A DNA stretch of 64,000 nt from an uncultured Dehalococcoidales bacterium (lineage in GTDB: Bacteria; Chloroflexota; Dehalococcoidia; Dehalococcoidales; UBA5627), in the NCBI GenBank assembly GCA_964399425.1, contig CAYNQR010000005.1, positions 5,883 through 69,882 of the forward strand, in the 5' to 3' direction. Under the pieces are notes generated by a model that saw only the letters and a list, made by a program, of their open reading frames with translations, ran no database searches and was not told where the DNA came from. Shown here one piece after another: positions 496 through 39,042 of this stretch (positions are counted from its first letter, which is position 1; every line of letters begins with the position of its first letter). The position numbers were made by a program, and so were the translations under genes.

Positions 496-1572
496 ATGTC
501 TGCTTTGTCACAAATCAATTCTCTTCAGATCAGCCAGAATGCAGGGCATTATCTCAGGATTGAACAGGCAAACCTGATACAGATGTCTTATGGTGATCTT
601 AACTCGTTAATCCTCGAAATCGAAAATAACGAAATATTTAACCGATTATTCAGGGAAGAAAAAATAATTCGATATAGGCGATTCGATAAGTCCGATTTGT
701 CTCGTAAGTATTTTACAATTGATGAATCGATGCTCATGGATAAGCGTTCACCTGAAATAGAGTCATTGCTGTTAAGCAAAAGACCAATTATCGAATATAT
801 TCGTAAAATCGGTATGGATAAATTCAGAAAATATTTCCTGTTGCCGGAAGATGGTTTATCCGAAAGCGAAATTGCTAATAACTGCACAATTACGATATCA
901 GTAGTCAGAGATATCAATAATCTGGTAAACGATGTGGCGGTAATGGATGAGTTTTATGCGTCATCCTCGCTTAATGCAAACGGCGTTAATTACACTAAAA
1001 TCGCCTCGATAGACAGAGATAAAAATGGTTTTAGCGTGAGTTATTTTTCAAATTCCCTGGCAAGAGGAAGATATATTATAGACTATGAAAAGTTCGAAAA
1101 CTCAGCGTTTACACAGAGTATTAATAAAAAAGAAATCAAAGCCGTCAGAGCGCTTTTAAAGAAGCTGGAAATGATCAATATTTACAAAGAGACACTGCAT
1201 CTGATTATCAGTAATGTAATCGCAAGACAGGCAACATATGTCGAATCGGGTAACGTCGGTGAATTATTGCCGCTGAGTCAGAAAGAACTGGCTCAGCAGA
1301 TGGGCATCAATGCCAGTACTTTAAGCCGTGCCATTAAATTCAGGACGATAGAGATTCCCTGTGGCAGAGAAGTTGCTTTAAAAAGCCTGTTCCCCAATCC
1401 TCGTAAGTTTAAGACACTTGTGCTAAAGAAAGTTGTGGAATCGGAAAAGGGAATAAATTCGGATGCCGGAATACAGGCTAAACTGGCAGAAAAATATGGA
1501 ATAAATATTTCAAGGCGTAGCGTGGCAAATATGAGAAAAGAACTGAAGATACCCGCCGGGAGAGCAAGGTAA
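496..1572 (+). CDS. rpoN: RNA polymerase sigma-54 factor, compact form (358 aa)
   Basis: The C terminus has an RpoN-box-like ISRRSVANMRKELKIP preceded by an HTH-like PLSQKELAQQMGINASTLSRAI. The N-terminal Leu/Gln-patterned region I (LQISQNAGHYLRIEQANLIQMS) is present. The protein is shorter than typical RpoN. Confidence 0.8.
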   Translation: MSALSQINSLQISQNAGHYLRIEQANLIQMSYGDLNSLILEIENNEIFNRLFREEKIIRYRRFDKSDLSRKYFTIDESMLMDKRSPEIESLLLSKRPIIEYIRKIGMDKFRKYFLLPEDGLSESEIANNCTITISVVRDINNLVNDVAVMDEFYASSSLNANGVNYTKIASIDRDKNGFSVSYFSNSLARGRYIIDYEKFENSAFTQSINKKEIKAVRALLKKLEMINIYKETLHLIISNVIARQATYVESGNVGELLPLSQKELAQQMGINASTLSRAIKFRTIEIPCGREVALKSLFPNPRKFKTLVLKKVVESEKGINSDAGIQAKLAEKYGINISRRSVANMRKELKIPAGRAR

Positions 1573-3522
1573 ATGAGTATTATATATACGGAAAAAGACA
1601 AATGTAAGAGTTGCTATGCCTGTATACGCAGTTGCCCGGTTAAAGCTATTAAAGTCGAGGAACGCTTGGCACAGGTGATCAGGGAACGTTGTATTGTATG
1701 CGGTAACTGCCTTGAGGTATGCGTTACGGGAGCAAAAAAAGCGGAAAGCGATACCAGTCTGGTGTGGCAGCTGCTGAGCCAGAGCGATAATTACCTGATA
1801 GCAGTAGTCTCCTCGTCTTTTCCTGCCGCTATACCTGAAGTTGCGCCGGGCAGCTTTGTTTCGGCATTGAAGAAACTAGGTTTTAATGAGGTTATGGAGG
1901 ATTCTTTCGGCGCAGAACTTATTGCCAGGGAATATGCGCGTCTCCTGAGCAATCAGGTTAGTAAACCTGTATTGTCATCGAATTGTCCTGCGGTTGTTAA
2001 CTATATAGAAAAATATTACCCGAAATTAATCGGATATATGGCTCATATCGTATCGCCGACTATTGCAACCGGGAGGCTGATTAAAAAGCATTATAATACT
2101 AAAGCAAAAGTGGTTTTTGTCGGACCTTGTGTAGCGAAAAAAGATGAGGCGCGAAATATAAGTAACCGTGGTGTCGTAGATGCGGTTTTAACATTTGCCG
2201 AAGTCAAAGAGATGTTTATGGCGAAAAATATAGTTCCCGATAAGGAACCCCAATCTGACTTTAACGGGCCGACTCCCGATATGGGAAGACTGATGTCGAT
2301 TTCAGGCGGATTGGCTAAAATTGCCGGTTTGTCGGATGATATTTTGAAAAACGAGGTTATCAGCGCCAACGGCAGGGAAGCAGTATCGAAAATATTAAAG
2401 GAATTTGCCCGCGGCGAGATTAATGCCAAATTGATTAACCTTTATTTTTGCAACGGGTGTGTCGGCGGCCCGGTTATCGATAATGAACTGAGCAGTTACA
2501 GGCGTGAAGAACTCGTTGCCCGCTATGCAATAAGAACGTCCAATCCTGAAAAAACAGAGCGTGACCTGAATAAATACAGTGATGTCGACCTGCGGAGACA
2601 GTTCACCACGCAGAATGTGGTTTTTGCATCACCGTCTGAAGAAGAAATAGAAGAAGTTATGCAAAAAATAAACAGAAGGAATCCGGAGGAGCAATTTAAT
2701 TGCGGTGCCTGCGGTTATAGTTCCTGCCGCGAACTGGCAATTGCGGTTTGCGAGGGGTTGGCAGAAATCGAAATGTGCTGGCCTTATTTACATAAACACA
2801 TGAAAGAGACGCAGGAAGGTTTGATACAGGCTGAAAAAATGACTTCTCTCGGGCAATTGGCAGCTTCCGTCGCTCACGAGATTAATAACCCGTTATCGGG
2901 TGTTCTTATCTATACACAGCTTATGGCTAAGAAATTAAAGAGTGACAATTTTGCTCCGGATGTTGCTCTTGATTACCTGTCTAAAATGGAAACGGAACTC
3001 AATCGAAGTACCAAACTGGTCAGAAGCCTGCTTGATTTTTCAAGGCAGTCGGTTCCCGAGTTTTGGGAAGTCGATGTCAATGAAATAGTCGACAGGAGTT
3101 TCGACCTGGGAATACATTCCGCTGAAATGCAAAATGTTAAGGTATTTAAAGAACTGTCTTCCGAATTACCGAAAATAACAGCTGATTTCGGACAGATTCA
3201 ACAGGTCTGCACCAATCTTATAATGAATGCCATACAGGCGATGCCCGGCGGCGGGGTTTTAAAGATCCATACTTTAATGGAAGCAAATGAGGTTCTAATC
3301 GAAGTAAGCGATACCGGCTCAGGTATATCGGCAGAGAATATGAAAAAAATATTCACCCCGTTTTTCACCACCAAAAGGGATAAAAAAGGGGTCGGATTGG
3401 GACTGGCGATATCCTATGGTATCGTACAGCGTCACCATGGAAGAATCGAAATACAGACAAAAGAAGGGGAAGGCACTACTTTCAAAGTTTACCTGCCTGT
3501 AAAGCATGAAGAAGAAGGTTAA
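1573..3522 (+). CDS. sensor histidine kinase with N-terminal ferredoxin plus [FeFe]-hydrogenase H-cluster-like domain
   Basis: Two 4Fe-4S motifs (CKSCYACIRSCP, CIVCGNCLEVC). H-cluster-like motifs SSNCP, GPCVAKKDE and FCNGCVGGP. A CGACGYSSCRELA Fe-S motif. Then H-box AHEINNPL, N-box NLIMNAIQAM, and G-boxes DTGSGI and GVGLGL. No TM segment is evident. The ATG directly follows the rpoN stop (TAAATG). Confidence 0.8.
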   Translation: MSIIYTEKDKCKSCYACIRSCPVKAIKVEERLAQVIRERCIVCGNCLEVCVTGAKKAESDTSLVWQLLSQSDNYLIAVVSSSFPAAIPEVAPGSFVSALKKLGFNEVMEDSFGAELIAREYARLLSNQVSKPVLSSNCPAVVNYIEKYYPKLIGYMAHIVSPTIATGRLIKKHYNTKAKVVFVGPCVAKKDEARNISNRGVVDAVLTFAEVKEMFMAKNIVPDKEPQSDFNGPTPDMGRLMSISGGLAKIAGLSDDILKNEVISANGREAVSKILKEFARGEINAKLINLYFCNGCVGGPVIDNELSSYRREELVARYAIRTSNPEKTERDLNKYSDVDLRRQFTTQNVVFASPSEEEIEEVMQKINRRNPEEQFNCGACGYSSCRELAIAVCEGLAEIEMCWPYLHKHMKETQEGLIQAEKMTSLGQLAASVAHEINNPLSGVLIYTQLMAKKLKSDNFAPDVALDYLSKMETELNRSTKLVRSLLDFSRQSVPEFWEVDVNEIVDRSFDLGIHSAEMQNVKVFKELSSELPKITADFGQIQQVCTNLIMNAIQAMPGGGVLKIHTLMEANEVLIEVSDTGSGISAENMKKIFTPFFTTKRDKKGVGLGLAISYGIVQRHHGRIEIQTKEGEGTTFKVYLPVKHEEEG

Positions 3523-4864
3523 AATTCTGGTAGTCGATGACGAAGGCGTAATCCGTGATTCGTTTTGCGAATGGCTGAGCGAACTCGGTTATGATGTTTT
3601 AATGGCCGAGAACGGGAACAAAGCTTTACAAATGATTAAGGAGAAGAAACCGGAGATTGCTTTTATCGACCTTGTCATGCCGGGTATGGACGGGATAGAA
3701 GTATTAAAGAGGGCCAGGGGAATATCGACTGATACCGGCTGCGTTGTCATGACGGCATATGGCAGCGTATCGACAGCTATAACCTCGATGAAAGAAGGGG
3801 CTTTCGACTATATAGAGAAACCCTTTTGTCCGGGGAAAGTCGAACTGTTAATTGAAAAACTGATTGAACATCAGAATATAAAAAAAGAGAATCTGCTATT
3901 GCAGCATAAGCTTGATGAACGTTACAGCTTCGAGAATATTATTTATAAAAGCGCCAAAATGCATGGGGTAATAGAATTGGTGAAAGCTGTCGCCAAGAGC
4001 AATGCCACTGTACTTATAACAGGAGAAAGCGGTACCGGTAAAGAACTTGTTGCGAAGGCAATACATAACTACAGCTATCGGCATAATAAACCGTTCGTGG
4101 CTATAAGCTGCGCCGCTCTGCCTGAGAATATACTTGAAAGTGAATTGTTCGGGCATGAAAAGGGTTCGTTTACCGGTGCGCACGTTCAAAGGAAAGGGAA
4201 ATTCGAATTTGCCGATAGCGGTACCCTTTTTATGGATGAAATCGGCGAAATGAGCGCCAATATACAGGTACATTTACTTAGAGTTTTAGAGGAAAAGGAA
4301 TTTATGCGCGTAGGAGGCAATGAACTTGTTAAGGTAGATGTCCGTTTAATATCTGCTACAAATAAGGATATGAAGCAGGAAGTCAAGCAGGGAAAATTCA
4401 GGGAAGACCTGTATTACAGGCTGAATGTGGTAAATATCGAACTCCCTTCATTACGCGATAGAAAAGAAGATATTCCGCTGCTTGCCGGGCATTTTTTGAA
4501 ACAGTTTGCTTTGGAAAACCAAAAAGAGATTGGCGGTTTCAAATCCGATGCAATGGATATTTTATTGAAATACGATTGGCCCGGTAATGTCAGAGAATTG
4601 GAAAATGCAGTAGAACGGGCGGTAATACTTTCAAAAAACGGCTTTATAGATAAAACAGACCTGTTAATGGAAGAAACGGGCGCTCTCCGGGGAGAAAAAT
4701 CCTTAGACAGCATAACGGAAATCGAAAAGAAACACATTGAAAATGTTTTAGATAAATGCGGCGGGAATTACAGCAAAACCGCCTGTATATTGGGGATTTC
4801 ACGGATGACTCTTTATAATAAAATTAAAGCTTACGGCATAGAAATGCACAAGATTAAAAAATAG
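3506..4864 (+). CDS. sigma-54-dependent response regulator (NtrC family: REC + AAA+ + Fis-type HTH)
   Basis: Receiver (VVDDEG, FIDLVMPGMDG, KPF), Walker A GESGTGKE, GAFTGA-type loop GSFTGA, and C-terminal HTH TACILGISRMTLYNKIK. Overlaps the kinase gene by 17 nt. Confidence 0.9.
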   Translation: MKKKVKILVVDDEGVIRDSFCEWLSELGYDVLMAENGNKALQMIKEKKPEIAFIDLVMPGMDGIEVLKRARGISTDTGCVVMTAYGSVSTAITSMKEGAFDYIEKPFCPGKVELLIEKLIEHQNIKKENLLLQHKLDERYSFENIIYKSAKMHGVIELVKAVAKSNATVLITGESGTGKELVAKAIHNYSYRHNKPFVAISCAALPENILESELFGHEKGSFTGAHVQRKGKFEFADSGTLFMDEIGEMSANIQVHLLRVLEEKEFMRVGGNELVKVDVRLISATNKDMKQEVKQGKFREDLYYRLNVVNIELPSLRDRKEDIPLLAGHFLKQFALENQKEIGGFKSDAMDILLKYDWPGNVRELENAVERAVILSKNGFIDKTDLLMEETGALRGEKSLDSITEIEKKHIENVLDKCGGNYSKTACILGISRMTLYNKIKAYGIEMHKIKK

Positions 4865-4884: not shown

Positions 4885-4900
4885 TGGCAAGAAAATTGCA
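4885..4900 (+). promoter_or_regulatory. sigma-54 (-24/-12) promoter
   Basis: TGGCAAGAAAATTGCA matches the consensus TGGCACG-N4-TTGCW at every fixed position except one, with correct GG-to-GC spacing. It lies 45 nt upstream of the ATG at 4945 and just downstream of the activator gene. Confidence 0.7.
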
Positions 4901-5355: not shown

Positions 5356-5432
5356 TTATCAGTTAATAATATTTAATTTGTTATTTGATATTTAACCGAA
5401 TATCGCAAATAAATAAAAAGGGGATGTGCAAT

Positions 5433-7766
5433 ATGAACGAGAGCTCAGTCCTTATCGTAGAAAGCGACCCCATTGTCAGGGATTCCCTCTGCGACTGGTT
5501 GAAGGACACCGGATTTGATGTCATTTCCGTTGAAAGCGGAGAAGAAATTATCCAGGTTGTCAGGAACCATGATTTTAACATCGTTATTATGGATGTCAGG
5601 CAGCAAGGGGAAAAACAACTGGCAACACTCAGAGAAATGAAAGCCGCAAATCCCTGGGTTAAATCAATCATTATTACCGCTTACCCGCAGGAAGAAACAG
5701 TTCTGGAAGCCAAAAAAATCGGTGTTGTAGATTATATGGTAAAGCCCCTGGATATGGACGACCTGCAAAGGATTATTCGCGGAACGGTTGAATCTATTTA
5801 CAAGGATAGTATGAATTCGGGAGAAATGGATTCAAATAGGGAATCGTATGCTGATAATATGGTATTGGAGATAAAAAAATCCTTTTCGATATCCAGGGAA
5901 AATCTCGCTTTAATGGTGGAGAACCTTATTAAAGAAATCGAAGTGGTAGGGGTAAAAGCCAGACAGGGCAAATATGTATTCGATAGAATAAACAGTTTCT
6001 ATGAACTGAGTCTCGACTATGATGTTACGGTATCTCCTCCGACCAGATATTTTTTCCCGGAAAGGGAAACACTTTTAAAATTTAAAACAGGCAGCAATCC
6101 ACAGGTTGAATCGGTTATTAATTATACTGCAAGAGTAATAATCGGGGTACATCCTTACGATATCAAGGCTATCGAGTTACTGGATGAAGTGTTTATAGTT
6201 CATAATCCCGACCCGAATTACATCGCAAAAAGAGAAAATACGGTAATAATAGGTATAGATTGCCTTCACCCGTCGCGAAAAAGTTTTGCCCCCAGCATGG
6301 GAACGAACTGGACTGAAACCGGCTTTGACCTGTTGTTAACGGATATCGGCAGCAGCTATATTGTCAAAATCGGCTCGGAAAAGGGCGTCGATATATTGAA
6401 GAAACATGCAAAATACAGAATACCCACCGGTGATGAAATCGTCAGGCAGAAAAAGGTAAGGGGTGAGGCACTGGGAAGATATAAAATTGCTCTCGACCTC
6501 CCCAAAGACCGTATCCCCAAAATCCTGGAAGAAAGTTATGACGACCCTTACTGGGAAACGAGAAGCTCTACCTGTTTAAGTTGCGGTTCCTGTGTTATGG
6601 TTTGTCCGACATGCTACTGTTTCGATGTCAGGGATGATATAGATTTGAATCTGAAAGAAGGCGAACGTTTCAGACGCTGGGACGGGTGTATGCTTGTTGA
6701 TTTTGCCAAAGTTGCTTCCGGAGAGAACTTCCGCCGCGATAAAGCCAGCCGCTTTCGTCACAGAATATTCAGAAAAGGTAAATATATACTGGAAAGATAT
6801 GGCAAGGCAGGTTGTGTCGGTTGCGGACGTTGTTCCAGCGCTTGTTTAGCAAGCATCGCAAGTCCGCTGGAAGCCTTTAATTCCATTGCGGAAAATATAC
6901 GGATGAAAGAAGCCGCTACCAGTCTGGTACAGCCTGCCAGGCAGGGGAAAGAGCTTTATGCCCCCGAGATGGCTGAAATCGTATCTGTCAGGCAGTTAAC
7001 CGAAAAGGAGAAGGTTTTCGAGTTAAGGTTGAAGAGCGGGAAAAAACTGGGTCATTCTCCCGGTCAGTTCATTACTCTATCGATACTCGGTGTAGGAGAG
7101 GCTCCCTTATCTATATCCTCGTCTCCCTTAAGAGGAAAGACCTTTCAGCTGGCAGTAAGAAATATGGGCGATTTGACTTCTGCTCTGCATTCTTTGCAGG
7201 CGGGAGCAATCGTCGGTATACGCGGACCGTTCGGACACGGTTTCCCGCTGGAGACACTGGAGGGTAAAGATTTATTGCTGATAGCGGGAGGTATCGGGAT
7301 TTTCCCGTTGCGTTCGTTAATACAATATGTCATGGATAGAAGATACGACTATGGTAAAGTCAGCTTGCTGTACGGTTGCCGCACACCTGCCGAAAGGGTA
7401 TTTACGGATGAACTCGATTACTGGCAGAATAGCGATGAAATAGATTTCCATGAAACGGTTGATAAAAAGGATGATACGTGGACCGGAAATGTAGGTGTGA
7501 TTACCAATCTAATCGATAAAGTTGAAATAGACCCCAAGAAAACAATGGTGGCAGTTGTCGGACCGCCGATAATGTATAAATTCGTCATTGAAAAATTGAA
7601 AAAAAGAGACCTTCCGGATGACCATGTCTACCTTTCTCTGGAAAGAAAGATGAAATGCGGAGTCGGGAAATGCGGTCATTGCCAGATAAATGGAGTTTAT
7701 ACCTGTCAGGAAGGGCCTGTATTTTCGTTAACTCAATTAAGAAGTCTTAGAGAGGCGGTGCTGTAA
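5433..7766 (+). CDS. receiver domain fused to sulfhydrogenase-type beta (4Fe-4S) and gamma (FAD/NAD(P), 2Fe-2S) subunits
   Basis: REC: LIVESD, IVIMDV, IITAY, VKPL. Beta-like part: CLSCGSCVMVCPTCYC and CVGCGRCSSAC. Gamma-like part: GQFITLS, IAGGIGIFPLRS and CGVGKCGHCQI..C. The tracked ORF starts at 5385, but the ATG at 5433 has the better SD (AAGGGGA). Confidence 0.8.
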   Translation: MNESSVLIVESDPIVRDSLCDWLKDTGFDVISVESGEEIIQVVRNHDFNIVIMDVRQQGEKQLATLREMKAANPWVKSIIITAYPQEETVLEAKKIGVVDYMVKPLDMDDLQRIIRGTVESIYKDSMNSGEMDSNRESYADNMVLEIKKSFSISRENLALMVENLIKEIEVVGVKARQGKYVFDRINSFYELSLDYDVTVSPPTRYFFPERETLLKFKTGSNPQVESVINYTARVIIGVHPYDIKAIELLDEVFIVHNPDPNYIAKRENTVIIGIDCLHPSRKSFAPSMGTNWTETGFDLLLTDIGSSYIVKIGSEKGVDILKKHAKYRIPTGDEIVRQKKVRGEALGRYKIALDLPKDRIPKILEESYDDPYWETRSSTCLSCGSCVMVCPTCYCFDVRDDIDLNLKEGERFRRWDGCMLVDFAKVASGENFRRDKASRFRHRIFRKGKYILERYGKAGCVGCGRCSSACLASIASPLEAFNSIAENIRMKEAATSLVQPARQGKELYAPEMAEIVSVRQLTEKEKVFELRLKSGKKLGHSPGQFITLSILGVGEAPLSISSSPLRGKTFQLAVRNMGDLTSALHSLQAGAIVGIRGPFGHGFPLETLEGKDLLLIAGGIGIFPLRSLIQYVMDRRYDYGKVSLLYGCRTPAERVFTDELDYWQNSDEIDFHETVDKKDDTWTGNVGVITNLIDKVEIDPKKTMVAVVGPPIMYKFVIEKLKKRDLPDDHVYLSLERKMKCGVGKCGHCQINGVYTCQEGPVFSLTQLRSLREAVL

Positions 7767-8506
7767 TGAAACCAAAAGTTGCCTTCTTCGATTTTACAGG
7801 ATGCGAGGGTTGCCAACTGGATGCATTAAATTTGGATGCCCAAGATTTAATCGACCTGCTGAGCGGTATTGATATCGTCAATTTCAGGGAAGTTATGACG
7901 GAAAGGGATGATAATTACGATATCGCTTTTGTCGAGGGCAGTATCACTACCGAGGGAGAAATAGCCCGAATTCAGAAAATCAGGGAACAGGCCAAGATAG
8001 TTGTTGCGCTGGGCGCCTGCGCCTGTATCGGTGGAATTAATTGCCTGAAAAACCATGTTCCAATGGAAGAAGCTCTCAGAATCGTGTACGGCAAGGATGC
8101 TGGATATTATAATACCATACCTGCCAGACCTGCCGATGCGGTTATAAAAGTCGATTACTATGTCAGGGGCTGCCCTCCGGTAACATCCGAACTGGTTAAA
8201 GTGATTAAAGCTTTGTTATTGAATAAAAAGCCCGACATTCCCAGCTATCCCGTATGCGTGGAATGCAAGATGGCTGGTAATATCTGTGTCTACGAAAAGG
8301 GACAGACATGTCTGGGTCCGGTTACCAGGGCAGGGTGCAGCGCTATATGCATTAACAGCGGTAGATACTGCTGGGGATGTCGCGGATTGGTTGATGAACC
8401 GAATATAGAATCACAAAAAGATATTTTGACAAAATACGGGCTCACAGCCGAACAGGTAATAGAAAAATTTAAAATATATGATACATGCAGTGAGGTGTTA
8501 AAATGA
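7766..8506 (+). CDS. hydD: [NiFe] hydrogenase small (delta) subunit, group 3 type
   Basis: Cys motifs FTGCEGCQ, GACACIGG and RGCPP, plus a C-terminal Cys cluster. The start overlaps the upstream stop (ATGA). The beta-gamma-delta-alpha gene order matches the Pyrococcus sulfhydrogenase operon. Confidence 0.8.
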   Translation: MKPKVAFFDFTGCEGCQLDALNLDAQDLIDLLSGIDIVNFREVMTERDDNYDIAFVEGSITTEGEIARIQKIREQAKIVVALGACACIGGINCLKNHVPMEEALRIVYGKDAGYYNTIPARPADAVIKVDYYVRGCPPVTSELVKVIKALLLNKKPDIPSYPVCVECKMAGNICVYEKGQTCLGPVTRAGCSAICINSGRYCWGCRGLVDEPNIESQKDILTKYGLTAEQVIEKFKIYDTCSEVLK

Positions 8507-9789
8507 CACAGGTTAACATAAATGTTCATCAATTAACCCGTGTCGAAGGACATGGCAACATCGTTCTCAATGTAAAAGATGGGAAAATAGAAGAACTTAA
8601 ATGGATTGTTACCGAATCCCCCCGTTTCTTTGAAGTGATGATGCGGGACAGATACTACGAAGACGTTAATCACATCGCATCGAGAATATGCGGTATCTGT
8701 TCGATATCCCATTCTACCGTATCCTTACAGGCTACTGAAAAAGCATTCGGAGTGAGACCATCCGAACAGACCATACTCTTAAGAAAACTGTTATTTAACG
8801 CCGAATTATTAGAAAGCCATATTTTACACGTGATGTTCCTGGCGGCTCCTGATTTCCTGGGAGTAGGCAGCGTTTTCCCCTTGGTCGATACTCACAAAGA
8901 TGTGGTTATCATGGCATTAAGGTTGAAACGGCTTTCTTATAATCTGGCCGAGGCACTTGCCGGCAGAAAAACGCATCCTCTTTCATGCATCGTGGGCGGA
9001 TTTGCCAAGCTGCCGCAATACAGCGAACTTGAAGCCTTGCGCAAAAGACTGGAAGATGCGCTGGTCGATCTTGCTGCAATAGTCGATATTTTTAAAACGT
9101 TGAAGATTCCCGATTTTACCAGGGAAACTGAGTATATTGCGTTAAAAGACGATAATGAATACGCCTTTATCAGCGGACAGATTGCATCTTCCGATGCCGG
9201 GCTTACTCCCGTTGAAAACTATTTAAAGGTTACCAACGAGTTTTGTGTTCCGCACTCTACGGCTAAATATACTAAAAACGCCAGGGATTCGTATATGGTA
9301 GGGGCGCTGGCGCGTTTTAATATCAACCATGACAAACTGCTGCCGAAAGCTAAAAACGCCGCGGCAGAGCTTGGGCTGTCAGCTCCCAACTTCAATCCGT
9401 TTATGATAACCGTGGCACAGCTGGTAGAAGTAGTTCATGCCGTTGAACACAGCATCCAGATAATCGACCGTCTGTTTGAAAAAGGACTCAAGGAAGAACC
9501 CAACCTGGTCACCCCGAAGAGGGGTAGGGGTATTTCAGCGGTTGAAGCTCCCAGGGGTATCCTTTTCCATGACTATTCCTATGGAGAAAGCGGCATCTTG
9601 AAAGAAGCCAACTGTGTAATACCGACAAATCAGAATCATAATAACATTCAAAAAGACTTTGAAGCGCTGGTTCCTTTAATCCTTTGTCAACCGGAAGATG
9701 AAATACGGCATACTATGGAGATGTTGGTAAGGGCATACGACCCTTGTATATCTTGTTCCACACACATGTTGAGAATTAATTTTAAGTAA
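8503..9789 (+). CDS. hydA: [NiFe] hydrogenase large (alpha) subunit, group 3b-like
   Basis: N-terminal RICGICSISH (RxCGxC) and C-terminal DPCISCSTH followed by the 7-residue tail MLRINFK, a protease substrate. At 428 aa, the size is typical of sulfhydrogenase alpha. Confidence 0.85.
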   Translation: MTQVNINVHQLTRVEGHGNIVLNVKDGKIEELKWIVTESPRFFEVMMRDRYYEDVNHIASRICGICSISHSTVSLQATEKAFGVRPSEQTILLRKLLFNAELLESHILHVMFLAAPDFLGVGSVFPLVDTHKDVVIMALRLKRLSYNLAEALAGRKTHPLSCIVGGFAKLPQYSELEALRKRLEDALVDLAAIVDIFKTLKIPDFTRETEYIALKDDNEYAFISGQIASSDAGLTPVENYLKVTNEFCVPHSTAKYTKNARDSYMVGALARFNINHDKLLPKAKNAAAELGLSAPNFNPFMITVAQLVEVVHAVEHSIQIIDRLFEKGLKEEPNLVTPKRGRGISAVEAPRGILFHDYSYGESGILKEANCVIPTNQNHNNIQKDFEALVPLILCQPEDEIRHTMEMLVRAYDPCISCSTHMLRINFK

Positions 9790-12756: not shown

Positions 12757-14514
12757 ATGCAAGGTGATGAACTAAAAAATAAAGCAAATCCACCCCAGGA
12801 ACTTCCCCCACCCCCCAAAATTCTTACAAAACCGCTTCCTGCTATTCTGGATGATATGGAAGCCAATATCAGGGCTGCCGTTGAAGCTGCCAAGAGAGCT
12901 GAAGACGCTTCGAAGAAAGCCAATGAGGCTGCAGTATTGGCTACACAAGCATCAGGAGAAGCGGAAAAAAGAGCGGAAGATGCCCGTAAGGCAGGGGAGA
13001 CCGCTGCACAGAAAGCTACTGCGGCAGCCGCTGAGGCGGCGGCTAAAGCTGAACGGATAGCTCAAATTGCCATTGCCGATGCCGAGAAAGCAGAGAAGAA
13101 AGCGAAAGAGGCAGCGGATGCCGCCAGCAGAGCGGCAGAAGAAGCGGCAAACAGAGCGGAAGAAGCAGCTCTTCGTGCTGAAGAAATAGCCCGGGCAGCT
13201 CAATATGCTGCCGAGGAAGCTACCGCAAAATCCAACGAAGTTGCACAGGCGGCTAAGGAAGTGGCTGCCGCTGCATTGAAAGCGGCAGAGGAAGCAGCTA
13301 TAAGGGCTGAAGATGCGGCAATTCTTGCCAGAGAAGCTGTAGAACGCTCTATCGAGGCGGCAAATGCGGCAGCGAAGCAGGCGGAAAATTCGGCAAAACT
13401 AGCGAAGTCGGCAACGGCAGAGGCGAACAAAAATCTGAATGCCGAGTCTGCCAAGAAAGCTGACGAAGCCGGTAGAGACTCCAAAAAAGCGGCAGCTGTT
13501 GCCTTCCGTTTGGCCGATGAAACTGCCAGAAAAGGCGAATTGGCTGACATTGCCGGAGACGCGGCTATACTGGCGGCTAGCAGAATATCCGGAATGCTGG
13601 CTGAAAGAATTGATGAATCGGGCAAGGATGCCAAAGAAGCTGCTTCGAAAGCATCCCGTATTGTAGATGAGACTGCCAGGAAAGCAGAATTAGCAGATGC
13701 CGCCGGTGATGAAGCGATGGCGGCAGCTATAAATGCCCTTGCCGAACAGGCTGCAAAGAGAGCACGGGAAGCAGCTATCGCAGCTAAAGAATCAGCTTTA
13801 AGTTCGATAGAAGCTGCAAAAGCGGCATCAAAGATATCCGATGAAAAACTGGAATTGGCTAAAGCGGCAGCGGCAGAAGCAGCGGCAAAGAGTACTGTAG
13901 AATCCGCCGGAAAGGCTGATGAGGCAGGCAGAGAAGCCAAGAAGGCTGCATTGGCTGCAACGCGCTTAGCTCAGGAAGTAGCCAGGAAAGGGGAACTGGC
14001 GGGAATTGCAGGCAGAGAAGCAACGGAAGCTGCGACAAAAGTATCCGGTGAATCTGCTATAAGTACTGCGCAGGCAGGCAAAGAAGCCAGTGAAGCATCG
14101 ATTGCGGCTGCAAAACTGGCTGAAGAGGTAGCGAAAAAAGCAGAGCAGGCAGATATAGCGGCAGATAAGGCTCTGGCAGCGGCTATTTCGTCAGCCGTAG
14201 CTCAGGCATTTGCCAAAGCGGAAGAAGCTCAAAGGGCTTCGCAGACAGCCAGCGCCAGAGCTGCCGATATTGCAAGAATGAGGGCTGAGGAAACCGATAA
14301 AGCAGCGAGGGAAGCGGTTGCCCGTGCTGAGGAAATAGCCAGGGCAGCGCAGAAAGCCGCTGACGAAGCCTTGGCAAAAGCGGAAGAAGCGCTTGTCAAG
14401 AAGATAGTCAGAAAACTCACGCAATCGGAGTGGGTGATATACATGATAATTATCATTCTGGCGATTGTTATGGGTTCCGTTTTCCTGGCTGTTGCTTTGA
14501 CTACCGGATTATAA
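12757..14514 (+). CDS. alanine/glutamate/lysine-rich coiled-coil protein, C-terminal transmembrane anchor
   Basis: 585-aa ORF with SD AAAGGAGG. A Pro-rich N-terminus (PPQELPPPPK) and about 520 aa of A/E/K-rich sequence with four recurring units of the type AG(R/K)(D/E)(A/S)K.AA...RL..E.A(R/K)K.ELA.(I/A)AG. One terminal TM (WVIYMIIIILAIVMGSVFLAVALT). No signal peptide. Confidence 0.7.
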   Translation: MQGDELKNKANPPQELPPPPKILTKPLPAILDDMEANIRAAVEAAKRAEDASKKANEAAVLATQASGEAEKRAEDARKAGETAAQKATAAAAEAAAKAERIAQIAIADAEKAEKKAKEAADAASRAAEEAANRAEEAALRAEEIARAAQYAAEEATAKSNEVAQAAKEVAAAALKAAEEAAIRAEDAAILAREAVERSIEAANAAAKQAENSAKLAKSATAEANKNLNAESAKKADEAGRDSKKAAAVAFRLADETARKGELADIAGDAAILAASRISGMLAERIDESGKDAKEAASKASRIVDETARKAELADAAGDEAMAAAINALAEQAAKRAREAAIAAKESALSSIEAAKAASKISDEKLELAKAAAAEAAAKSTVESAGKADEAGREAKKAALAATRLAQEVARKGELAGIAGREATEAATKVSGESAISTAQAGKEASEASIAAAKLAEEVAKKAEQADIAADKALAAAISSAVAQAFAKAEEAQRASQTASARAADIARMRAEETDKAAREAVARAEEIARAAQKAADEALAKAEEALVKKIVRKLTQSEWVIYMIIIILAIVMGSVFLAVALTTGL

Positions 14515-25099: not shown

Positions 25100-26788
25100 T
25101 CAACCGAATGCCAGCTTCTGTCTTATGTTTTTATAATATCCATATTCATCAAAACATTCTTCAGAAGATTGCATTAGAGATTCAATGGCTGTGATCAGAG
25201 ACGACAATCTGGCATTCCTTTCAGTTTCATCAGCTATATCCATGATATTATCCACTTCATCAGCAGCTATCCTTTCAAGCTTGGTTTGAATCCGGTCAGC
25301 GATTGCCAGGCTATCATGATAATATATCCTGTATTTCTCTGATTCATTGATAGAATAATGCAAAGATTCAAATATAAGCTCTATCAGCCCCTTTTTATCA
25401 AGCAAATCCGTTTCATGGTTGAGCCACTGATGCCATGATGGTTTGGACAAGGCATTTATATACTCCTCAAGATCCCTGAAGAGAAGTTTATAACCATGCT
25501 TTTCAGGTTGATCAAAAGCCAAGGATCCGGGGTCTATAATTATCGGGCCGACAATTGGAGTAGGGACATAGTGCTCAATATACTTGAAACTCTTTTTTTG
25601 AATAGCAACATGGTCAAGCATACAAAGCTCATCCCAGAGTTCCCATGTTTTTTTAATAGTAGTTGAGTCTTCACCAGCCAACCCTACTGAAAAGAAAACT
25701 GTTACCGGAATATGGTATTTATGACAAAGTTTGACTGTATCCAGCAGTTCTTCGGTTGTATAATTTCTTCCTTGCCTTTTTCGTACAGAACAAGAACCTG
25801 AATCCGGACAGATATATAGAAGCACCTTTCGGCCAATAGCCGCTACTTCTTTGATAAAGCTCTCGCCGGCGGGTGCAAGGAGATCAATTGACAATTGAAC
25901 ATCCTCTGGTATTTCCCGGTGAAGTATGGCCATTAATTCCCTCCAGTAACTTTCACCGCCCATGCGCGGGTCTTGGTAAAGCCCAATAAATTTAATGCCC
26001 TGTTGACGGAGTTGCCGTATGTCATCAGCAATTTTAACAGGGCTTCTAAAAGAAGGCCTGAGCATCCCCATGTATTTTTTGTAACTGTAGGACGATGCTC
26101 CACAGGTAGTACAGTTATAAATACAACCTCGACAGACAACCAGACTTCCATGCGGCTCCTTATCCTCAGTAAATATGGAGGTTTTAGGTTCTAATAAATC
26201 GAAACGGGTGAAGTTAAACTCATCGAGATCGCAAGATGTTTCCATAAGAGGAGTTACCTTTATTTCTCCACTCTGCAAACGATAAGTTAGATTAGGAGTA
26301 TTTCCAATCCTGTTGTTTCTTTTTAAATCTTTAATGAAATGCAGTAGCGGTTTTTCCGCTTCTCCTCTGATCACTGCATCCACAAAGTTATATTTAGCTA
26401 TTATTTCCTGGTGGAAATAGGTAGCCGTAAGCCCTCCTAATATAATCAGTGAATCAGGATGCAACTCTTTACATAGTCTCGCAACTTCAATAGCACCCTG
26501 AGCATGGTGATGCCAATGCAGATCAATACCAAATATCTTGGCCGAGAGATTTTTCAGATGTTTTTTGACGTCAAATTCGGCATCGGCAGTCATCCGGTCG
26601 GCCAGATTATCGATTATGACCTTGTAACCAAAAGAATCGAGATAATTAGCAATGCTAATCATACCTATCGGAACTTTAACAAACTGGATACGTTCCACTG
26701 TAGAACCGAGAGGACCCGGAAACAGAGGTTTTTTGCGAAAATCAAAGATTGCCGGAGGATGAATTAGTATAATATCGTAATCTGTCAT
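25100..26788 (-). CDS. B12-binding-domain radical SAM protein (class B type), paralogue 2
   Basis: N-terminal Rossmann-like YDIILIHPPA...PIGMISIANYL, a radical SAM motif C-IYN-C-TT-C with an extra upstream Cys, and a long C-terminal domain. Aligns over most of its length with the ORF at 26930..28489. Confidence 0.75.
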   Translation of the reverse strand: MTDYDIILIHPPAIFDFRKKPLFPGPLGSTVERIQFVKVPIGMISIANYLDSFGYKVIIDNLADRMTADAEFDVKKHLKNLSAKIFGIDLHWHHHAQGAIEVARLCKELHPDSLIILGGLTATYFHQEIIAKYNFVDAVIRGEAEKPLLHFIKDLKRNNRIGNTPNLTYRLQSGEIKVTPLMETSCDLDEFNFTRFDLLEPKTSIFTEDKEPHGSLVVCRGCIYNCTTCGASSYSYKKYMGMLRPSFRSPVKIADDIRQLRQQGIKFIGLYQDPRMGGESYWRELMAILHREIPEDVQLSIDLLAPAGESFIKEVAAIGRKVLLYICPDSGSCSVRKRQGRNYTTEELLDTVKLCHKYHIPVTVFFSVGLAGEDSTTIKKTWELWDELCMLDHVAIQKKSFKYIEHYVPTPIVGPIIIDPGSLAFDQPEKHGYKLLFRDLEEYINALSKPSWHQWLNHETDLLDKKGLIELIFESLHYSINESEKYRIYYHDSLAIADRIQTKLERIAADEVDNIMDIADETERNARLSSLITAIESLMQSSEECFDEYGYYKNIRQKLAFG

Positions 26789-26929
26789 GGTCGGGTTTCA
26801 GTCTCTCTTCACATTTAAATTTATTAAGATGAAATTGCTGTATCAGTCATATACAGCTTCATTCTATGCCTGTAATAAGTGAGTATTTATCATGTGCAGA
26901 ATGATGAAGATGGAGAAACCTTAATTTTA

Positions 26930-28489
26930 TCACCTTTTATCAGGATCAACCTCACTCATTACACGTTTAACCACATCTATTGCTTCCCTGTTGCCCTTTA
27001 TGTACCGGTTGAGAGCATCATCAACTTCGGCTCTGGTGTATATACCATATTTACCCCTCAGATTAATAGAAAATTCTATTGAGTCGATAAATAGCTCGGC
27101 ATTCGAATATTTGTCTAAAAAACGCGTTTCATACGATATCCATTGAGGCCACACCAATTGCGACATGCCATGGACATAGTCTTCAAGGTTTTTAAATATC
27201 AAACGATATCCGTGTTTATCTGGAAAATCAAATGAGGGTGAACCCGGGTCAAGCAGTATCATTGGCCCGAAAGCATAACTAAAAGGCGCTTTATTATCAC
27301 TCCTGGAATTTGTTAGGCAAATAAGCTCCCAGAATTTCCAGGTTTTTTTAATAGTATCAGGGGTATCATTTGCCAGTGAAATCATTGTATGAATTCCTAA
27401 AGGAATATCATATTTCTTGCACAGCTTCGCAAAGTTTAAGATCTCATCATTTGTATAATCACGCCCATGGATTTTTCTTATGCTGTCTACTCCTGACTCA
27501 GGCGAGATGGTAATAACGATTGGTAAACCGCTTTTGGATAGTTTTTTCAAAAAATCTTCGCCTGCAGGGCGAAAAACTTCAATTGTTATTTCTTCCGGCT
27601 TAACTTTCAGGTTTTTTAAAGCAGTAATAAGCTTGCTTACATATTCATTGCCTCCCATATTGGGGTCTTGCGCAAGAAATACCATTCCGACTCCTTGACT
27701 GACAAGTTTTTCTATATCTTCAGCTATTTTAGCCGGACTTCGAAAAGCAGGTTTGTGCCTGCCCAGGTATTTCTTATAGCTGTAGGCTGACCCACCACAT
27801 GAGACGCAATTATGCAAACACCCACGGCAAACAGGTATAGTCCAATGAGGCGCCCAACCCGGTCCGAAGATGGCTCCTTTAGGTTCGATCAAATCAAAAC
27901 GTGTATATTCGAATTCGTCTAAATCTTTGACCGGTTCCATCAAAGGATTAATATTTGTTTTACCTGTAGTATGGCGAAAAGTAAGATTAGGGACATCTTC
28001 CAGGGTTTGATTGCCTTCGAGTGTTTTCATCAATTTTAAAAAAGGTTTTTCAGCTTCTCCGCGAATCACAATATCTACAAACTCACTTTTATGTATAATT
28101 TCCTCGTGGAAAACGGTAGCAGTCAATCCTCCCATAATAACAATGGCTTCCGGATGCAACTTCTTACATAGCCGCGCCAACTCAATAGCTCCCTGGCAAT
28201 GCACACACCAATTAAGACCAATGGCAAATATTTTGGCTGAGAGCCTGCTAATGTGTGCTTCAACATCAAAATCCAAGTCCTTTATCATCCGCTCGCCTAT
28301 ATTGTCGACAATAACTCTGTATCCGTTTTTGTCAAGATAATCGGCAATACTGAGCATACCAATCGGTGGGATTATAAATTGTTCGGTGCTTTCACATACC
28401 GTATGACCTATCGGACCGGGAAAAATCGGCTTCTTACGGAAATCATAAATTGCCGGCGGGTGTATTAATATAACATCATAATTATTCAT
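26930..28489 (-). CDS. B12-binding-domain radical SAM protein (class B type), paralogue 1
   Basis: YDVILIHPPA...PIGMLSIADYL and a radical SAM motif C-LHN-C-VS-C. Same architecture as the neighbouring paralogue. Confidence 0.75.
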   Translation of the reverse strand: MNNYDVILIHPPAIYDFRKKPIFPGPIGHTVCESTEQFIIPPIGMLSIADYLDKNGYRVIVDNIGERMIKDLDFDVEAHISRLSAKIFAIGLNWCVHCQGAIELARLCKKLHPEAIVIMGGLTATVFHEEIIHKSEFVDIVIRGEAEKPFLKLMKTLEGNQTLEDVPNLTFRHTTGKTNINPLMEPVKDLDEFEYTRFDLIEPKGAIFGPGWAPHWTIPVCRGCLHNCVSCGGSAYSYKKYLGRHKPAFRSPAKIAEDIEKLVSQGVGMVFLAQDPNMGGNEYVSKLITALKNLKVKPEEITIEVFRPAGEDFLKKLSKSGLPIVITISPESGVDSIRKIHGRDYTNDEILNFAKLCKKYDIPLGIHTMISLANDTPDTIKKTWKFWELICLTNSRSDNKAPFSYAFGPMILLDPGSPSFDFPDKHGYRLIFKNLEDYVHGMSQLVWPQWISYETRFLDKYSNAELFIDSIEFSINLRGKYGIYTRAEVDDALNRYIKGNREAIDVVKRVMSEVDPDKR

Positions 28490-33072: not shown

Positions 33073-33189
33073 TTTTTTATTTCTCCTTTCATAGATTCTA
33101 ATTAAATAACACAAGTTGTTTAATAGGCATCCCCTCCTTTTTGACTGCTGACATTGATATAAATATAATTTAACGATTAACCTCAGAAT

Positions 33190-33576
33190 TTAGTCATTAT
33201 TCGATTGGCTTTCCCATTTACTTCGTCTTATAATTGCCCTTAATCTTGCTGCAAATATATTTTTATTGAAAGGTTTTATAATAAAACTATTTGCGCCGGA
33301 ATCCAGAGCTCTTTCGAGTAACTGGATATCTCTGTCATGGGAAACAAATATTATTGGAATGTCGTTATCCTCCCTAATTTGCTTAACCAATTCACAACCT
33401 GACATATCAGATAATTTTAAGCCTATAATTATTGCTTCATGCACTTCATTACTTCTTATATCATTAAGACATTTTTTACCTGAAGAATAAATTTCTACTT
33501 TACAATCGTATTGAAATATTTCAATAGCCTGTTTTATATCATCGATAGCATTGGCGTCGGTATCCGCAATTATCAT
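33190..33576 (-). CDS. single-domain response regulator (CheY-like receiver)
   Basis: Receiver hallmarks: LSDMSG (phospho-Asp), FVSHD and IIKPF. No output domain. Confidence 0.75.
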   Translation of the reverse strand: MIIADTDANAIDDIKQAIEIFQYDCKVEIYSSGKKCLNDIRSNEVHEAIIIGLKLSDMSGCELVKQIREDNDIPIIFVSHDRDIQLLERALDSGANSFIIKPFNKNIFAARLRAIIRRSKWESQSNND

Positions 33577-33905
33577 AACAATCTATCCTTAAATTCATTT
33601 GCGTAATCTATCTATTTTTATATATAAACCTGATATATTCATCGTAATATAAATAAGATTTTTAAAAGCCGCAGATGTCTCTTTCAGGAAGGTTGAGAAG
33701 ACTAATTAATTGCTTGCTATACTATAATTCAATATAACAAATGTATATTAATAAACCTGTAAATATAGCCAGTTATTAATAACAATATAGAAATATATAT
33801 TAATATAATTGAAATAATTTGCAGGGAAATTTGAGATTCAAGCTGAATGGGAGAGGAATTGTTACAATGACTTATTTTATATTCTGAAATTAGTATTTTA
33901 AATTA

Positions 33906-34592
33906 TCAACTTTGTCCATTGGTATTAAAGTAATAACCGATACCGGATTTAGTAATAATCACGTTTTTGTTACCTGTGCGAGATTCTATTTTATTACGAA
34001 TACGTTGAATGTGCACCCTAAGTGCATTTTCCTCCCCGGGGTAATAGTTGCCCCAAATGTTGTTATATAGATTATTATAGGCGACCACATTCCCCTTGTT
34101 AATTAAAAGTAGATAAAGAATTTGGGATTCAATATTTGTCAGATATATTATTTTCTCTTCATATATTAATTGTCTCTTGGATAAACTGAAATTATATAGC
34201 CCGATTTTTAGATATTCCTGTTCATACAGGTTTGTTTTCTTCATAACATTGTTAACACGGGCGAGAAACTCAAGATGGCGGAATGGTTTGGAAATATAAT
34301 CATTTGCTCCTAATTCAAGTGCTTTAACAATATCACGTTCTTCTCCTCTAACTGTCAATACAATAACTGGTACATTAGAAAATAAACGCAACCTTCTTAA
34401 GACTTCAAATCCATCGATATCAGGTAATCCCAAATCAAGAATAACGAGGTCCGGATTTTCTTTTTCAGCAGTATCTAGCCCCTCTTCACCAAATTTAGAT
34501 GATAATAATAATATGTCTGGTCGGCTGACCTTAAATATCAAAGTAACAATCTCAATGGATCCGAGATCATCTTCAATTATTAAGACTTTCAT
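33906..34592 (-). CDS. OmpR/PhoB-family response regulator (pair 1)
   Basis: REC (IIEDD, ILDLGLPDIDG, SKPF) plus a winged-helix C-terminus (ALRVHIQRIRNKIE). Adjacent to the kinase gene, with a 1-nt gap. Confidence 0.85.
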   Translation of the reverse strand: MKVLIIEDDLGSIEIVTLIFKVSRPDILLLSSKFGEEGLDTAEKENPDLVILDLGLPDIDGFEVLRRLRLFSNVPVIVLTVRGEERDIVKALELGANDYISKPFRHLEFLARVNNVMKKTNLYEQEYLKIGLYNFSLSKRQLIYEEKIIYLTNIESQILYLLLINKGNVVAYNNLYNNIWGNYYPGEENALRVHIQRIRNKIESRTGNKNVIITKSGIGYYFNTNGQS

Positions 34593-34593
34593 T

Positions 34594-37941: not shown

Positions 37942-38358
37942 AATCCAGTATTCGCCCCGAAATAGTAGTTGCTATTATGAGTTTTTTATTTTCTAGAAAT
38001 GATCATACAGTAACAGAAATGATTGTGAAATGGCTATGAAATTTAAGGTAATGGTATACTAATTTTAAACAGAGGTCAATAGCAGATTCCTGAACTTTTG
38101 CATTGTACATTCTTCTCTTTAATTGTTCAATGAATCCATTAATCCATATTTATGAGATGATTACTTATAAGACATTTTTAGACATAACTATAAAATTTAT
38201 ACGGGATTTTCTCTTCATCCAGAATGTCCTGAAATTCACTAAAAGCTGACTGATGTTTATAATATCTTAGTTTAGGGATACCAATGGTTCCATTTTCTCA
38301 AATAAAGGTTGAGTGATGTCAGATTAAGTCAAGACTACTACATCTATATATTTATATA

Positions 38359-39042
38359 TCATGACGGTATAGATAATATATATCCTTGAGAAACCATAGT
38401 AAAGATATATTTAGGATTGGCAGGGTCTTCTTCTATTTTATTGCGAAGTCGTTTCATATATACTCTTATGGCTTCTTCGGAACCGGGATATTCCCTACCC
38501 CACAGAGCTTGAGCAAGTCTGTAATAAGTTACAACGGAATTGGCATTATTCATTAATTCGGCAAAGATTACGCATTCACTTCTTGTAAGAGAAATGTGTT
38601 TTTCGTTATATAATAATTCATGTTTGTAGGCATTTAACTGAAATTTTCCCTTTGTAAGAGAGGCTTTTTCAGCTAATATATCCAGTTTGTGTGTATTAGC
38701 TTTTATTCTGGCAATCAATTCCATCTGTCTAAAGGGTTTTACGATATAATCATTTGCTCCCAATCCTAATCCGGTAACTACATCCGCTTCTTCGCCACGG
38801 ATTGTTAAAATAATTACCGGCACATTTGAATATTGTCGTATTTGTTTTAGCACATCGAATCCATTAATATCAGGTAATCCAAGGTCAAGGATAACAATAT
38901 CCGGAGAAACTTCGTCCACCAATTGAATTCCTTCTTCTCCTAAACGTGTGGGTATAAACTCCGCCTCAGGCCAACATAACTTGAAGGTCATGGCTAATGA
39001 TTCCAGAATACGTTTGTCGTCATCAACAACAAGTATTTTCAT
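38359..39042 (-). CDS. OmpR/PhoB-family response regulator (pair 2)
   Basis: Paralogue of 33906..34592 (VVDDD, ILDLGLPDING, VKPF, AIRVYMKRLRNKIE). Confidence 0.85.
   Translation of the reverse strand: MKILVVDDDKRILESLAMTFKLCWPEAEFIPTRLGEEGIQLVDEVSPDIVILDLGLPDINGFDVLKQIRQYSNVPVIILTIRGEEADVVTGLGLGANDYIVKPFRQMELIARIKANTHKLDILAEKASLTKGKFQLNAYKHELLYNEKHISLTRSECVIFAELMNNANSVVTYYRLAQALWGREYPGSEEAIRVYMKRLRNKIEEDPANPKYIFTMVSQGYILSIPS

Follow-up and report, generated by a model that had tools for sequence, protein, structure and literature searches.

A response-regulator receiver domain fused to the diaphorase module of a group-3b-type [NiFe]-hydrogenase in Dehalococcoidales

The regulation of hydrogenases is known at the level of transcription, of maturation and of inactivation by redox state or O2, and to our knowledge no hydrogenase is under two-component phosphorylation of one of its subunits. 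In Cupriavidus necator, the HoxBC-HoxJ-HoxA system (group 2b) contains a hydrogenase-type sensor, a histidine kinase and an NtrC-family activator that control the energy-converting [NiFe]-hydrogenases, and we know of no receiver on a catalytic hydrogenase subunit in the Hox system. The Hyh hydrogenase of Mycobacterium smegmatis (Hyd3, group 3b) is under DosS/T-DosR, which responds to redox or hypoxia, and the CheB methylesterase, the PleD/WspR diguanylate cyclases and RpfG are response regulators with enzymatic output domains. Here a stretch of 64,000 nucleotides from an uncultured Dehalococcoidales bacterium (contig CAYNQR010000005.1, positions 5,883 to 69,882; hereafter the window) was analysed, in which one gene was found to encode a response-regulator receiver domain (REC) followed by the fused beta and gamma subunits, the diaphorase module, of a [NiFe]-hydrogenase (Table 1).

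The four modules and the gene order of the hydrogenase were found to be like those of the Pyrococcus furiosus SHI/sulfhydrogenase (HydBGDA; 9nez, 9nf0) and of the Thermococcus kodakarensis enzyme (5yxy), whereas the window differed from these group 3b enzymes in the fusion of beta and gamma, in the added N-terminal receiver and linker, in the bacterial host (Dehalococcoidales) and in the two-component system that flanks the operon. A hydrogenase-type sensor, a kinase and an NtrC-family activator were present as in the C. necator Hox system, but the sensor of the window was [FeFe]-hydrogenase-like and covalently joined to the kinase, and the target enzyme bears a receiver. As in M. smegmatis Hyh, a two-component system was found to be tied to a group 3b hydrogenase; the control there, however, is purely transcriptional and no subunit has a receiver. 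The protein resembled CheB, PleD/WspR and RpfG in its N-terminal receiver, its flexible linker, its enzyme domain and the presence of a kinase encoded nearby, whereas its output was found to be a redox subunit with several cofactors, part of a hetero-oligomeric metalloenzyme. The kinase was found to be like the putative sensory [FeFe]-hydrogenases HydS (groups C and D; T. maritima and T. mathranii) in its N-terminal ferredoxin-like clusters, its SSNCP H-domain and its Cx2Cx4Cx16C motif, a C-terminal cluster motif that is a feature of HydS (PMC8163306), and unlike HydS in the absence of a PAS domain and in its identifiable downstream targets, the NtrC-type activator and the receiver-bearing [NiFe]-hydrogenase. 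In full-text searches of the literature no description was found of a response regulator with a hydrogenase or AsrAB-like output or of a receiver-bearing hydrogenase subunit, although one may still have been noted by someone, and the only co-mention of CheY-like and sulfhydrogenase that was found there was unrelated.

The open reading frame (ORF) at 5385-7766 on the plus strand was found to be uninterrupted by stops, as had been claimed in a preliminary description of the window, and its product contained 777 amino acids (aa) when started at the ATG at 5433. This ATG is the likely start codon; an AAAGGGG ribosome-binding site was found 8 nt upstream, and the N-terminus MN(E/G)S, common to all close homologues, matched this start. 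The protein was found to contain the Pfam matches Response_reg (residues 6-115, E 4.8e-20), Fer4_22 (380-475), FAD_binding_6 (515-602), NAD_binding_1 (616-718) and DHODB_Fe-S_bind (737-769), together with ShyB/HydB-like (153-476) and HydG/ShyC-like (507-773) matches in NCBIfam and two visible CxxCxxCxxxC [4Fe-4S] motifs in the beta-like part. In the PDB sequence search, the gamma (9nez_C, E 4e-60) and beta (9nez_B, E 2e-51) subunits of P. furiosus SHI were matched as separate chains. The same chains were found by Foldseek with an AlphaFold2 model based on an alignment of 64 family sequences, the gamma part matching 9nf0_C/9nez_C with a template-modelling (TM) score of 0.84-0.88 normalised to the target, and the Fe-S regions of the model were of low confidence, as expected without cofactors. 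The claim that receiver, beta and gamma stand on one polypeptide was upheld by Pfam, NCBIfam and the conservation among homologues, and a linker of about 25 residues was shown to tether the receiver to the N-terminus of the fused beta-gamma module.

When 5.8 billion proteins were searched for homologues, the matches at 59-94% identity and 100% coverage fell into more than 120 clusters with a length of about 775 aa, nearly all of which contained PF00072 together with the beta and gamma domains. The clusters came from independent ENA, JGI, NCBI and Logan assemblies, the named ones being Dehalococcoidales or Chloroflexota metagenome-assembled genomes, and were labelled generically in the databases as 'response regulator', '4Fe-4S dicluster domain-containing protein' or 'sulfite reductase subunit B'. 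A locus scan with one genome per GTDB species gave 42 related loci, onto which the window proteins were mapped. REC, beta and gamma were found in one frame in L001-L019, L022, L024 and L025, the nearest match to the fusion protein being that of L001 (P0001, 94% identical); beta and gamma were fused without a receiver in L020, L021 and L023 and were separate genes in L027-L042 (Chloroflexota, Thermodesulfobacteriota, Myxococcota and others). The search of related genomes that the preliminary description had proposed recovered the same uninterrupted architecture in about 20 Dehalococcoidales species genomes besides the clusters. No stop was found in any of the nine aligned clade genes, and purifying selection was found to span the junction. 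REC-beta-gamma is no one-off; it forms a large family, annotated automatically and apparently not yet described.

The genes of the small (delta) and large (alpha) hydrogenase subunits were found downstream, the start of delta overlapping the stop codon of the fusion gene by 1 nt and alpha overlapping delta by 4 nt, and the delta and alpha genes are translationally coupled. Both Ni-Fe ligand motifs, RICGICSISH (RxCGxCxxxH) and DPCISCSTH (DPCxxCxxH), were present in alpha. The PDB matches of alpha in group 3b were 5yxy_A (E 1e-68) and 9nez_D (E 1e-67), followed in other groups by Mvh (3c, 6e-50), the NAD-reducing hydrogenase (3d, 1e-33) and Frh (3a, 2e-37 or weaker). In NCBIfam, the ShyA and HydA models scored highest, though under the equivalog cut-offs. 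The NCBIfam scores of the fusion protein were all under these cut-offs too, and for this reason it is a relative and not an orthologue. By best sequence match alpha belongs to the group 3b type, which agrees with the earlier assignment, the nearest proteins in PDB and NCBIfam being the cytosolic hydrogenases of T. kodakarensis and P. furiosus. The order beta-gamma-delta-alpha was also as earlier described, beta and gamma being separate in Pyrococcus and at the loci with separate genes.

The features of group 3b were found in the AsrA-like beta part with two [4Fe-4S] clusters and in the AsrB/PyrK-like gamma part with FAD, NAD(P) and [2Fe-2S]; in place of four separate subunits, beta and gamma formed one polypeptide plus the receiver. 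A group 2b regulatory hydrogenase was not matched, the large subunit being nearest to group 3b and the full FAD/NAD(P) module being present. At the level of sequence, the fusion gene was shown to encode the diaphorase module of a cytoplasmic group-3b-type NAD(P)-linked [NiFe]-hydrogenase, and the fusion protein should form a complete enzyme together with delta and alpha. Electrons would pass between NAD(P)(H) and the FAD and [2Fe-2S] of gamma, then through the two [4Fe-4S] clusters of beta and the [4Fe-4S] of delta to the Ni-Fe site.

The receiver was found to score 72.2 bits against PF00072 (gathering cut-off 30.2). In the AlphaFold2 model it contained the (beta-alpha)5 fold, five strands alternating with five helices, with a per-residue confidence (pLDDT) of 75-87, followed by a disordered segment at 126-149 with pLDDT <50 at 126-143. 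Because a confident fold was followed by a disordered and least conserved segment, the receiver is regarded as a folded domain on a flexible tether. Among 119 full-length homologues, the phospho-acceptor D54 at the end of beta3, which aligned with D57 of CheY, was conserved in all, as were T82 and P105, followed by K104 and the aromatic switch Y101 in 117 each; T82, Y101 and K104-P105 were all present in the receiver of the window. In the CheY alignment, E10 stood for D12 and S11 for D13, the metal-binding Asp being Ser. The window was thus found to contain E10-S11(-D12) in place of the canonical Mg2+-binding acidic pair and to retain four of the five CheY-like signature residues.

The family was found to split into two clades, one with a D-D-E pocket (112 of the 119) and one with an E-S-D pocket (the window plus six relatives). 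Following the acceptor Asp, the loop sequence was DIRLPGxTG in the D-D-E clade and DVRQQGEKQ in the clade of the window. Mean pairwise identity in the D-D-E clade was 77.9% for the receiver, 74.9% for beta and 79.2% for gamma, and in the clade of the window 75%, 87% and 90%, respectively; between the clades the receiver was 49% identical, compared with 68-70% for beta and gamma. The ratio of nonsynonymous to synonymous substitution rates (dN/dS) in the clade of the window was 0.08 for the receiver, 0.04 for beta/gamma and 0.22 for the linker, the last having about 50% pairwise identity, and the value of 0.08 therefore indicates purifying selection on the receiver. D54, K104-P105 and Y101 were invariant in this clade and T82 was kept in nearly all members, the receiver of L008 carrying T82A. 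The receiver had earlier been called complete; D54, T82 and K104-P105 were indeed found, whereas the acidic ESD was non-canonical with Ser for the metal-binding Asp, so that the term is right for most of the family and only partly for the gene of the window.

Upstream of the fusion gene, the genes for a sigma-54-like protein, the kinase and the NtrC-type activator were found to overlap or abut one another. The kinase input contained two ferredoxin-like clusters and the motifs SSNCP (in place of TSCCP, the proton-relay Cys being lost), GPCVAKKDE, FCNGCVGG and Cx2Cx4Cx16C, the last leading straight to HisKA/HATPase_c without a PAS domain. A sigma-54-type promoter-like element was found past the NtrC gene, and its pattern TGGCA-N6-TTGCA was kept in 8 of 10 relatives amid otherwise variable sequence. 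It was absent only in L003 and L007, exactly where the NtrC gene was deleted and the kinase and REC-hydrogenase genes were kept. The sigma-54 pattern was no commoner than chance over the whole window (22 found, 26.6 expected), and the site at 4885 rests for this reason on its position and its conservation. No second sigma-54 promoter was seen in the sequence directly upstream of the fusion gene (5356-5432).

Three contexts of the fusion gene were distinguished, namely that of the window (A), that of L003 and L007 with NtrC lost and the kinase kept (B), and that of the D-D-E clade (C). NtrC was missing from context C, where a stand-alone receiver sharing 66-80% identity with the fused receiver was found directly upstream and a convergent kinase downstream with a phosphotransfer and catalytic (DHp-CA) core 48-59% identical to that of the window. 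The sensor of the context C kinase was a HydS-like module in L012 and a membrane domain in L013 and others, and since the same kinase core carried a membrane sensor in L013, one sensor module has been exchanged for another. Within 7 kb, a homologous kinase core was found at 15 of 16 informative REC-bearing loci and at 1 of 9 loci without REC (Fisher p = 7e-5, shared ancestry not being corrected for), HisKA_3-type kinases such as that upstream in L023 being left out of the count. The sole informative REC-bearing locus without a nearby kinase was L019 (3626-5947), where the receiver carried D54N and no two-component gene was found within 3.6 kb upstream or 6 kb downstream. At this locus, a SelA and a SelD-like gene were observed upstream of the REC-beta-gamma homologue.

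Helix alpha1 is the main kinase-docking helix of receivers. The alpha1 motif RDS[LF]C[DE]WL was found, among the five receiver ORFs of the window, only in the NtrC receiver, where it reads RDSFCEWL, and in the fused receiver, the two being 25% identical overall. When the DHp regions were compared between the clades they proved orthologous, and in this comparison co-variation with receiver alpha1 is indistinguishable from drift. The sole effector domain at the locus in context C was the hydrogenase, which is the strongest argument for the enzyme as the regulated output. The earlier idea that the kinase serves both the NtrC-type activator and the fused receiver thus gains comparative support from the linkage, the loci with NtrC loss and the alpha1 motif.

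Related fusions were found in other lineages, where the receiver-beta design has recurred independently. When 1.84 billion cluster representatives were searched exhaustively with HMMER, the search gave one REC-beta-gamma protein, about 10 beta-gamma fusions without a receiver (50% identity) and six REC-beta proteins of 460-505 aa (32-43% identity), the acidic pockets being canonical in all REC-beta except P0134, which contained H-E-S. On the REC-beta contigs (L047-L049, L051 and one more), REC-beta was followed by gamma, delta and alpha, and Cache-type kinases, NtrC-type activators and extra receivers were found near these operons. A second homologue search gave about 25 more REC-beta clusters, the named ones from Dehalococcoidia and Planctomycetota, about 25 clusters of REC-HisKA-HATPase-beta (~745 aa) and about 10 clusters of beta with an N-terminal helix-turn-helix domain (HTH_17-beta, ~422 aa), and each of the three types was found to head a full gamma-delta-alpha operon. 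As REC, REC-kinase and HTH modules were all found on beta, the N-terminus of group-3b beta appears to be a site to which signalling modules have been joined repeatedly, and this recurrence across lineages argues for a general design principle over a curiosity. The kinase-beta and HTH-beta proteins may be 'trigger enzyme' hydrogenases. Other receiver-enzyme fusions observed in related hydrogenase loci were Pyr_redox_2-REC, REC-Pyr_redox_2, REC-GcvH-like and HycI-receiver, and in these organisms several redox and maturation proteins seem to carry receivers.

The best-supported reading, which we infer from these comparisons, would be control of enzyme activity by receiver phosphorylation. The receiver would make the hydrogenase itself a response regulator of the adjoining histidine kinase, which, with its sensory-type [FeFe]-hydrogenase input, would read H2 or the redox state. 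In one branch, the phosphoryl group would pass to NtrC, which would act at the sigma-54 promoter on orf136, the first gene past it, and on the hydrogenase genes; in the other it would pass to the receiver on the hydrogenase. In the most speculative step, phosphorylation would change the alpha4-beta5-alpha5 face of the receiver, which would then either dimerise receivers and alter the oligomeric state of the complex or dock the receiver on, or release it from, the beta/gamma surface, and either route would tune the electron flow between H2 and NAD(P) faster than transcription. That the kinase phosphorylates both NtrC and the receiver of the enzyme, thereby altering activity or assembly of the hydrogenase, is put forward tentatively, its chances being judged slightly short of even.

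Several observations weigh against this reading. The clade of the window has the E-S-D pocket, has lost the LPG loop and includes the T82A of L008, and its receiver was found to diverge about twice as fast as beta and gamma; the altered acidic pocket therefore may mean that the branch to the receiver is weakened or works partly through phosphorylation-independent docking to the kinase. The alpha1 motif was also found in other receivers of the lineage (L012), for which reason it is suggestive only and may reflect common descent. The linker was disordered, and the AlphaFold2 output, which consisted of pLDDT and secondary structure, contained no evidence of a contact between receiver and enzyme. 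Since L019 keeps a receiver without the acceptor Asp, a phosphorylation-independent role exists, and the REC-HisKA-HATPase-beta and HTH_17-beta variants suggest that the beta module is able to provide the input, or sensor, for signalling domains.

An alternative considered unlikely is that the receiver in the clade of the window is a phosphorylation-independent pseudo-receiver, kept for dimerisation or docking, with regulation shifted to NtrC and sigma-54. The altered pocket and lost loop were found in all seven clade members and the substitution at T82 in L008, the receiver was more divergent than beta and gamma between the clades, and the clade with the altered pocket is also the one with NtrC and the sigma-54 promoter; the similar H-E-S pocket of P0134 and the Asp-less receiver of L019 point in the same direction. 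Yet the acceptor, the switch residue and the Lys-Pro pair do not vary in this clade, T82 nearly so, and the dN/dS of the receiver remains low. D12, right after the Ser, might substitute in metal binding, and L003 and L007 keep the kinase after NtrC loss, which under such a model would leave it without a partner.

Held to be improbable to about the same degree is a signal flow from the enzyme, in which the hydrogenase would report the H2/NAD(P)H state and the receiver would be a redox-dependent phosphate sink or competitor feeding back on NtrC-driven transcription. A hybrid kinase (L050, L055) or HTH_17 (L053) occupies the same N-terminal position on homologous beta proteins, in which the Fe-S module is the only plausible input, and the near-identical stand-alone receiver beside the fused one in the sister clade is as in sink or competition circuits. 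A receiver by itself, however, cannot transmit, and the sister clade has no DNA-binding response regulator at the locus, so that there is nothing to feed back on. The enzymes moreover contain full diaphorase modules, and related loci contain HycI and Hyp maturation genes typical of catalytic hydrogenases.

Rather than to a hydrogenase, the beta-gamma part could belong to an anaerobic sulfite reductase of the AsrAB type or to some other AsrA/AsrB-like oxidoreductase, but this is highly improbable. The AsrB (TIGR02911, 207.9 bits) and AsrA (TIGR02910, 139.3 bits) models matched the fusion protein and 'sulfite reductase subunit B' is the JGI name of many homologues, but the cut-offs are 288.6 and 323, respectively, and both scores were under those of the hydrogenase beta/gamma models. 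No AsrC follows; every complete locus instead continues with translationally coupled genes for the [NiFe] small and large subunits, and the AsrAB identity was ruled out by the sub-cut-off scores and the downstream delta and alpha. That the fusion is an artefact of assembly, frameshift or gene calling and the receiver truly a separate gene is given practically no weight and was ruled out, because the frame is kept in more than 120 independent clusters and about 20 genomes and without a stop in the clade genes, the separate receiver gene directly upstream in the sister clade being found in addition to the fused one.

If control of the hydrogenase through its receiver is true, it would be the first phospho-regulated hydrogenase, a 'sensory' [FeFe]-hydrogenase would for the first time have a defined output, and a [NiFe]-hydrogenase would be controlled on two time scales by an [FeFe]-hydrogenase-derived sensor kinase. 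If the receiver controls activity or assembly, anaerobes, among them the Dehalococcoidales of digester and sediment metagenomes, would have a fast layer of control over their H2/NAD(P)H balance, and the outputs of response regulators would be extended to a multi-cofactor metalloenzyme. The wider proposition, that a whole class of group-3b-type hydrogenases, so far without a description, is wired directly into signalling via a receiver, a receiver plus kinase or an HTH domain at the N-terminus of beta and that the enzyme of the window is controlled both transcriptionally and by phosphorylation, is possible but doubtful. With its kinase-fused sensor and two identifiable targets, the locus offers a tractable test of what putative sensory [FeFe]-hydrogenases of the HydS type signal to.

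Table 1. Features of the hydrogenase locus in the window and of related features at other loci (locus-prefixed coordinates)
Feature	Coordinates	Strand	Support or remarks
Short sigma-54-like protein (358 aa)	496..1572	+	PF04552 at residues 210-358; syntenic in L002, L008, L024
Sensor histidine kinase, [FeFe]-hydrogenase-like (HydS-type) input	1573..3522	+	Fe_hyd_lg_C, FeS, HisKA, HATPase_c domains
NtrC-type sigma-54 activator (REC-AAA+-HTH_8)	3506..4864	+	Pfam, NCBIfam
Sigma-54-type promoter-like element TGGCAAGAAAATTGCA	4885..4900	+	In 80-nt gap past NtrC gene; -24/-12, one mismatch
orf136, 136 aa	4945..5355	+	First gene past promoter; TPR-like (tetratricopeptide repeat) N-terminal half, Cys-rich C-terminal part (CLYC...C...CKTC)
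REC-beta-gamma fusion gene	5433..7766	+	777 aa plus stop; Pfam/NCBIfam domain order; >120 full-length homologue clusters
Receiver domain, residues 1-125	5433..5807	+	PF00072 E 4.8e-20; AlphaFold2 fold; D54 codon 5592-5594
Flexible linker, residues 126-152	5808..5888	+	Low pLDDT; lowest conservation of whole protein
Beta-like part (HydB/ShyB/AsrA-like), residues 153-476	5889..6860	+	NF040829 E 1e-64; Fer4_22; 9nez_B E 2e-51
Beta-gamma connector, residues 477-506	6861..6950	+	Beta and gamma share frame in L001-L026
Gamma-like part (FAD, NAD(P), [2Fe-2S]), residues 507-777	6951..7763	+	NF006220 E 8e-82; Foldseek
Hydrogenase small subunit (delta)	7766..8506	+	PF01058 (Oxidored_q6); HydD-like E 2e-57
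[NiFe] large subunit (alpha), group-3b type	8503..9789	+	RICGICSISH and DPCISCSTH motifs; best PDB 5yxy_A, 9nez_D
HTH_17-beta	L053:7001-8284		Locus with HycI and Hyp maturation genes
REC-HisKA-HATPase-beta	L050:5557-7779		Rex-like gene upstream
REC-HisKA-HATPase-beta	L055:8001-10241		Locus with HycI-REC fusion
Receiver-enzyme fusions	L012:5871-7622; L051:5182-7828; L055:13215-14102		
Distant [NiFe] small/large pair	L002:109-2447; L003:2070-4408; L008:136-2474; L031:21-2388		

In L002, L008 and L024 the sigma-54-like gene was found to be kept immediately before the kinase gene. Only its C-terminal DNA-binding domain was recognisable, residues 1-173 matching nothing, and the protein may be a dedicated sigma factor for the cassette. 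Just upstream of this gene in relatives, a second and distant [NiFe] small/large pair (25-29% identity to delta/alpha) was observed, the matching position falling beyond the left end of the window. The product of orf136 was found to be kept at 65-82% identity in L001-L008 and L024 and to be confined to the clade of the window, and no Pfam or NCBIfam match was found for it. Its reading as a degenerate stand-alone receiver, considered for its position as in the sister clade, was rejected as no BLASTP alignment and no family match were obtained, and the ORFs of 47-48 aa that precede REC-beta in L047 and L051 were likewise rejected as homologues of orf136, being unrelated.

Elsewhere in the window, the plus strand at 12757-14514 was found to encode a 585-aa Ala/Glu/Lys-rich protein, probably a coiled coil, with a transmembrane anchor at its C-terminus and without a Pfam match, and it is because of this gene that a local rise in GC (0.50-0.54) and in AT skew (up to 0.37) was observed. 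Two paralogous B12-binding radical-SAM genes were found at 25100-28489. The minus strand at 30118-42341 contained paralogous Reg_prop/Y_Y_Y histidine kinases at 34594-37941 and 39084-42341, each followed by a response-regulator ORF, and an AhtL-like molybdopterin oxidoreductase at 30118-33114 (minus strand) was found to adjoin these kinases.

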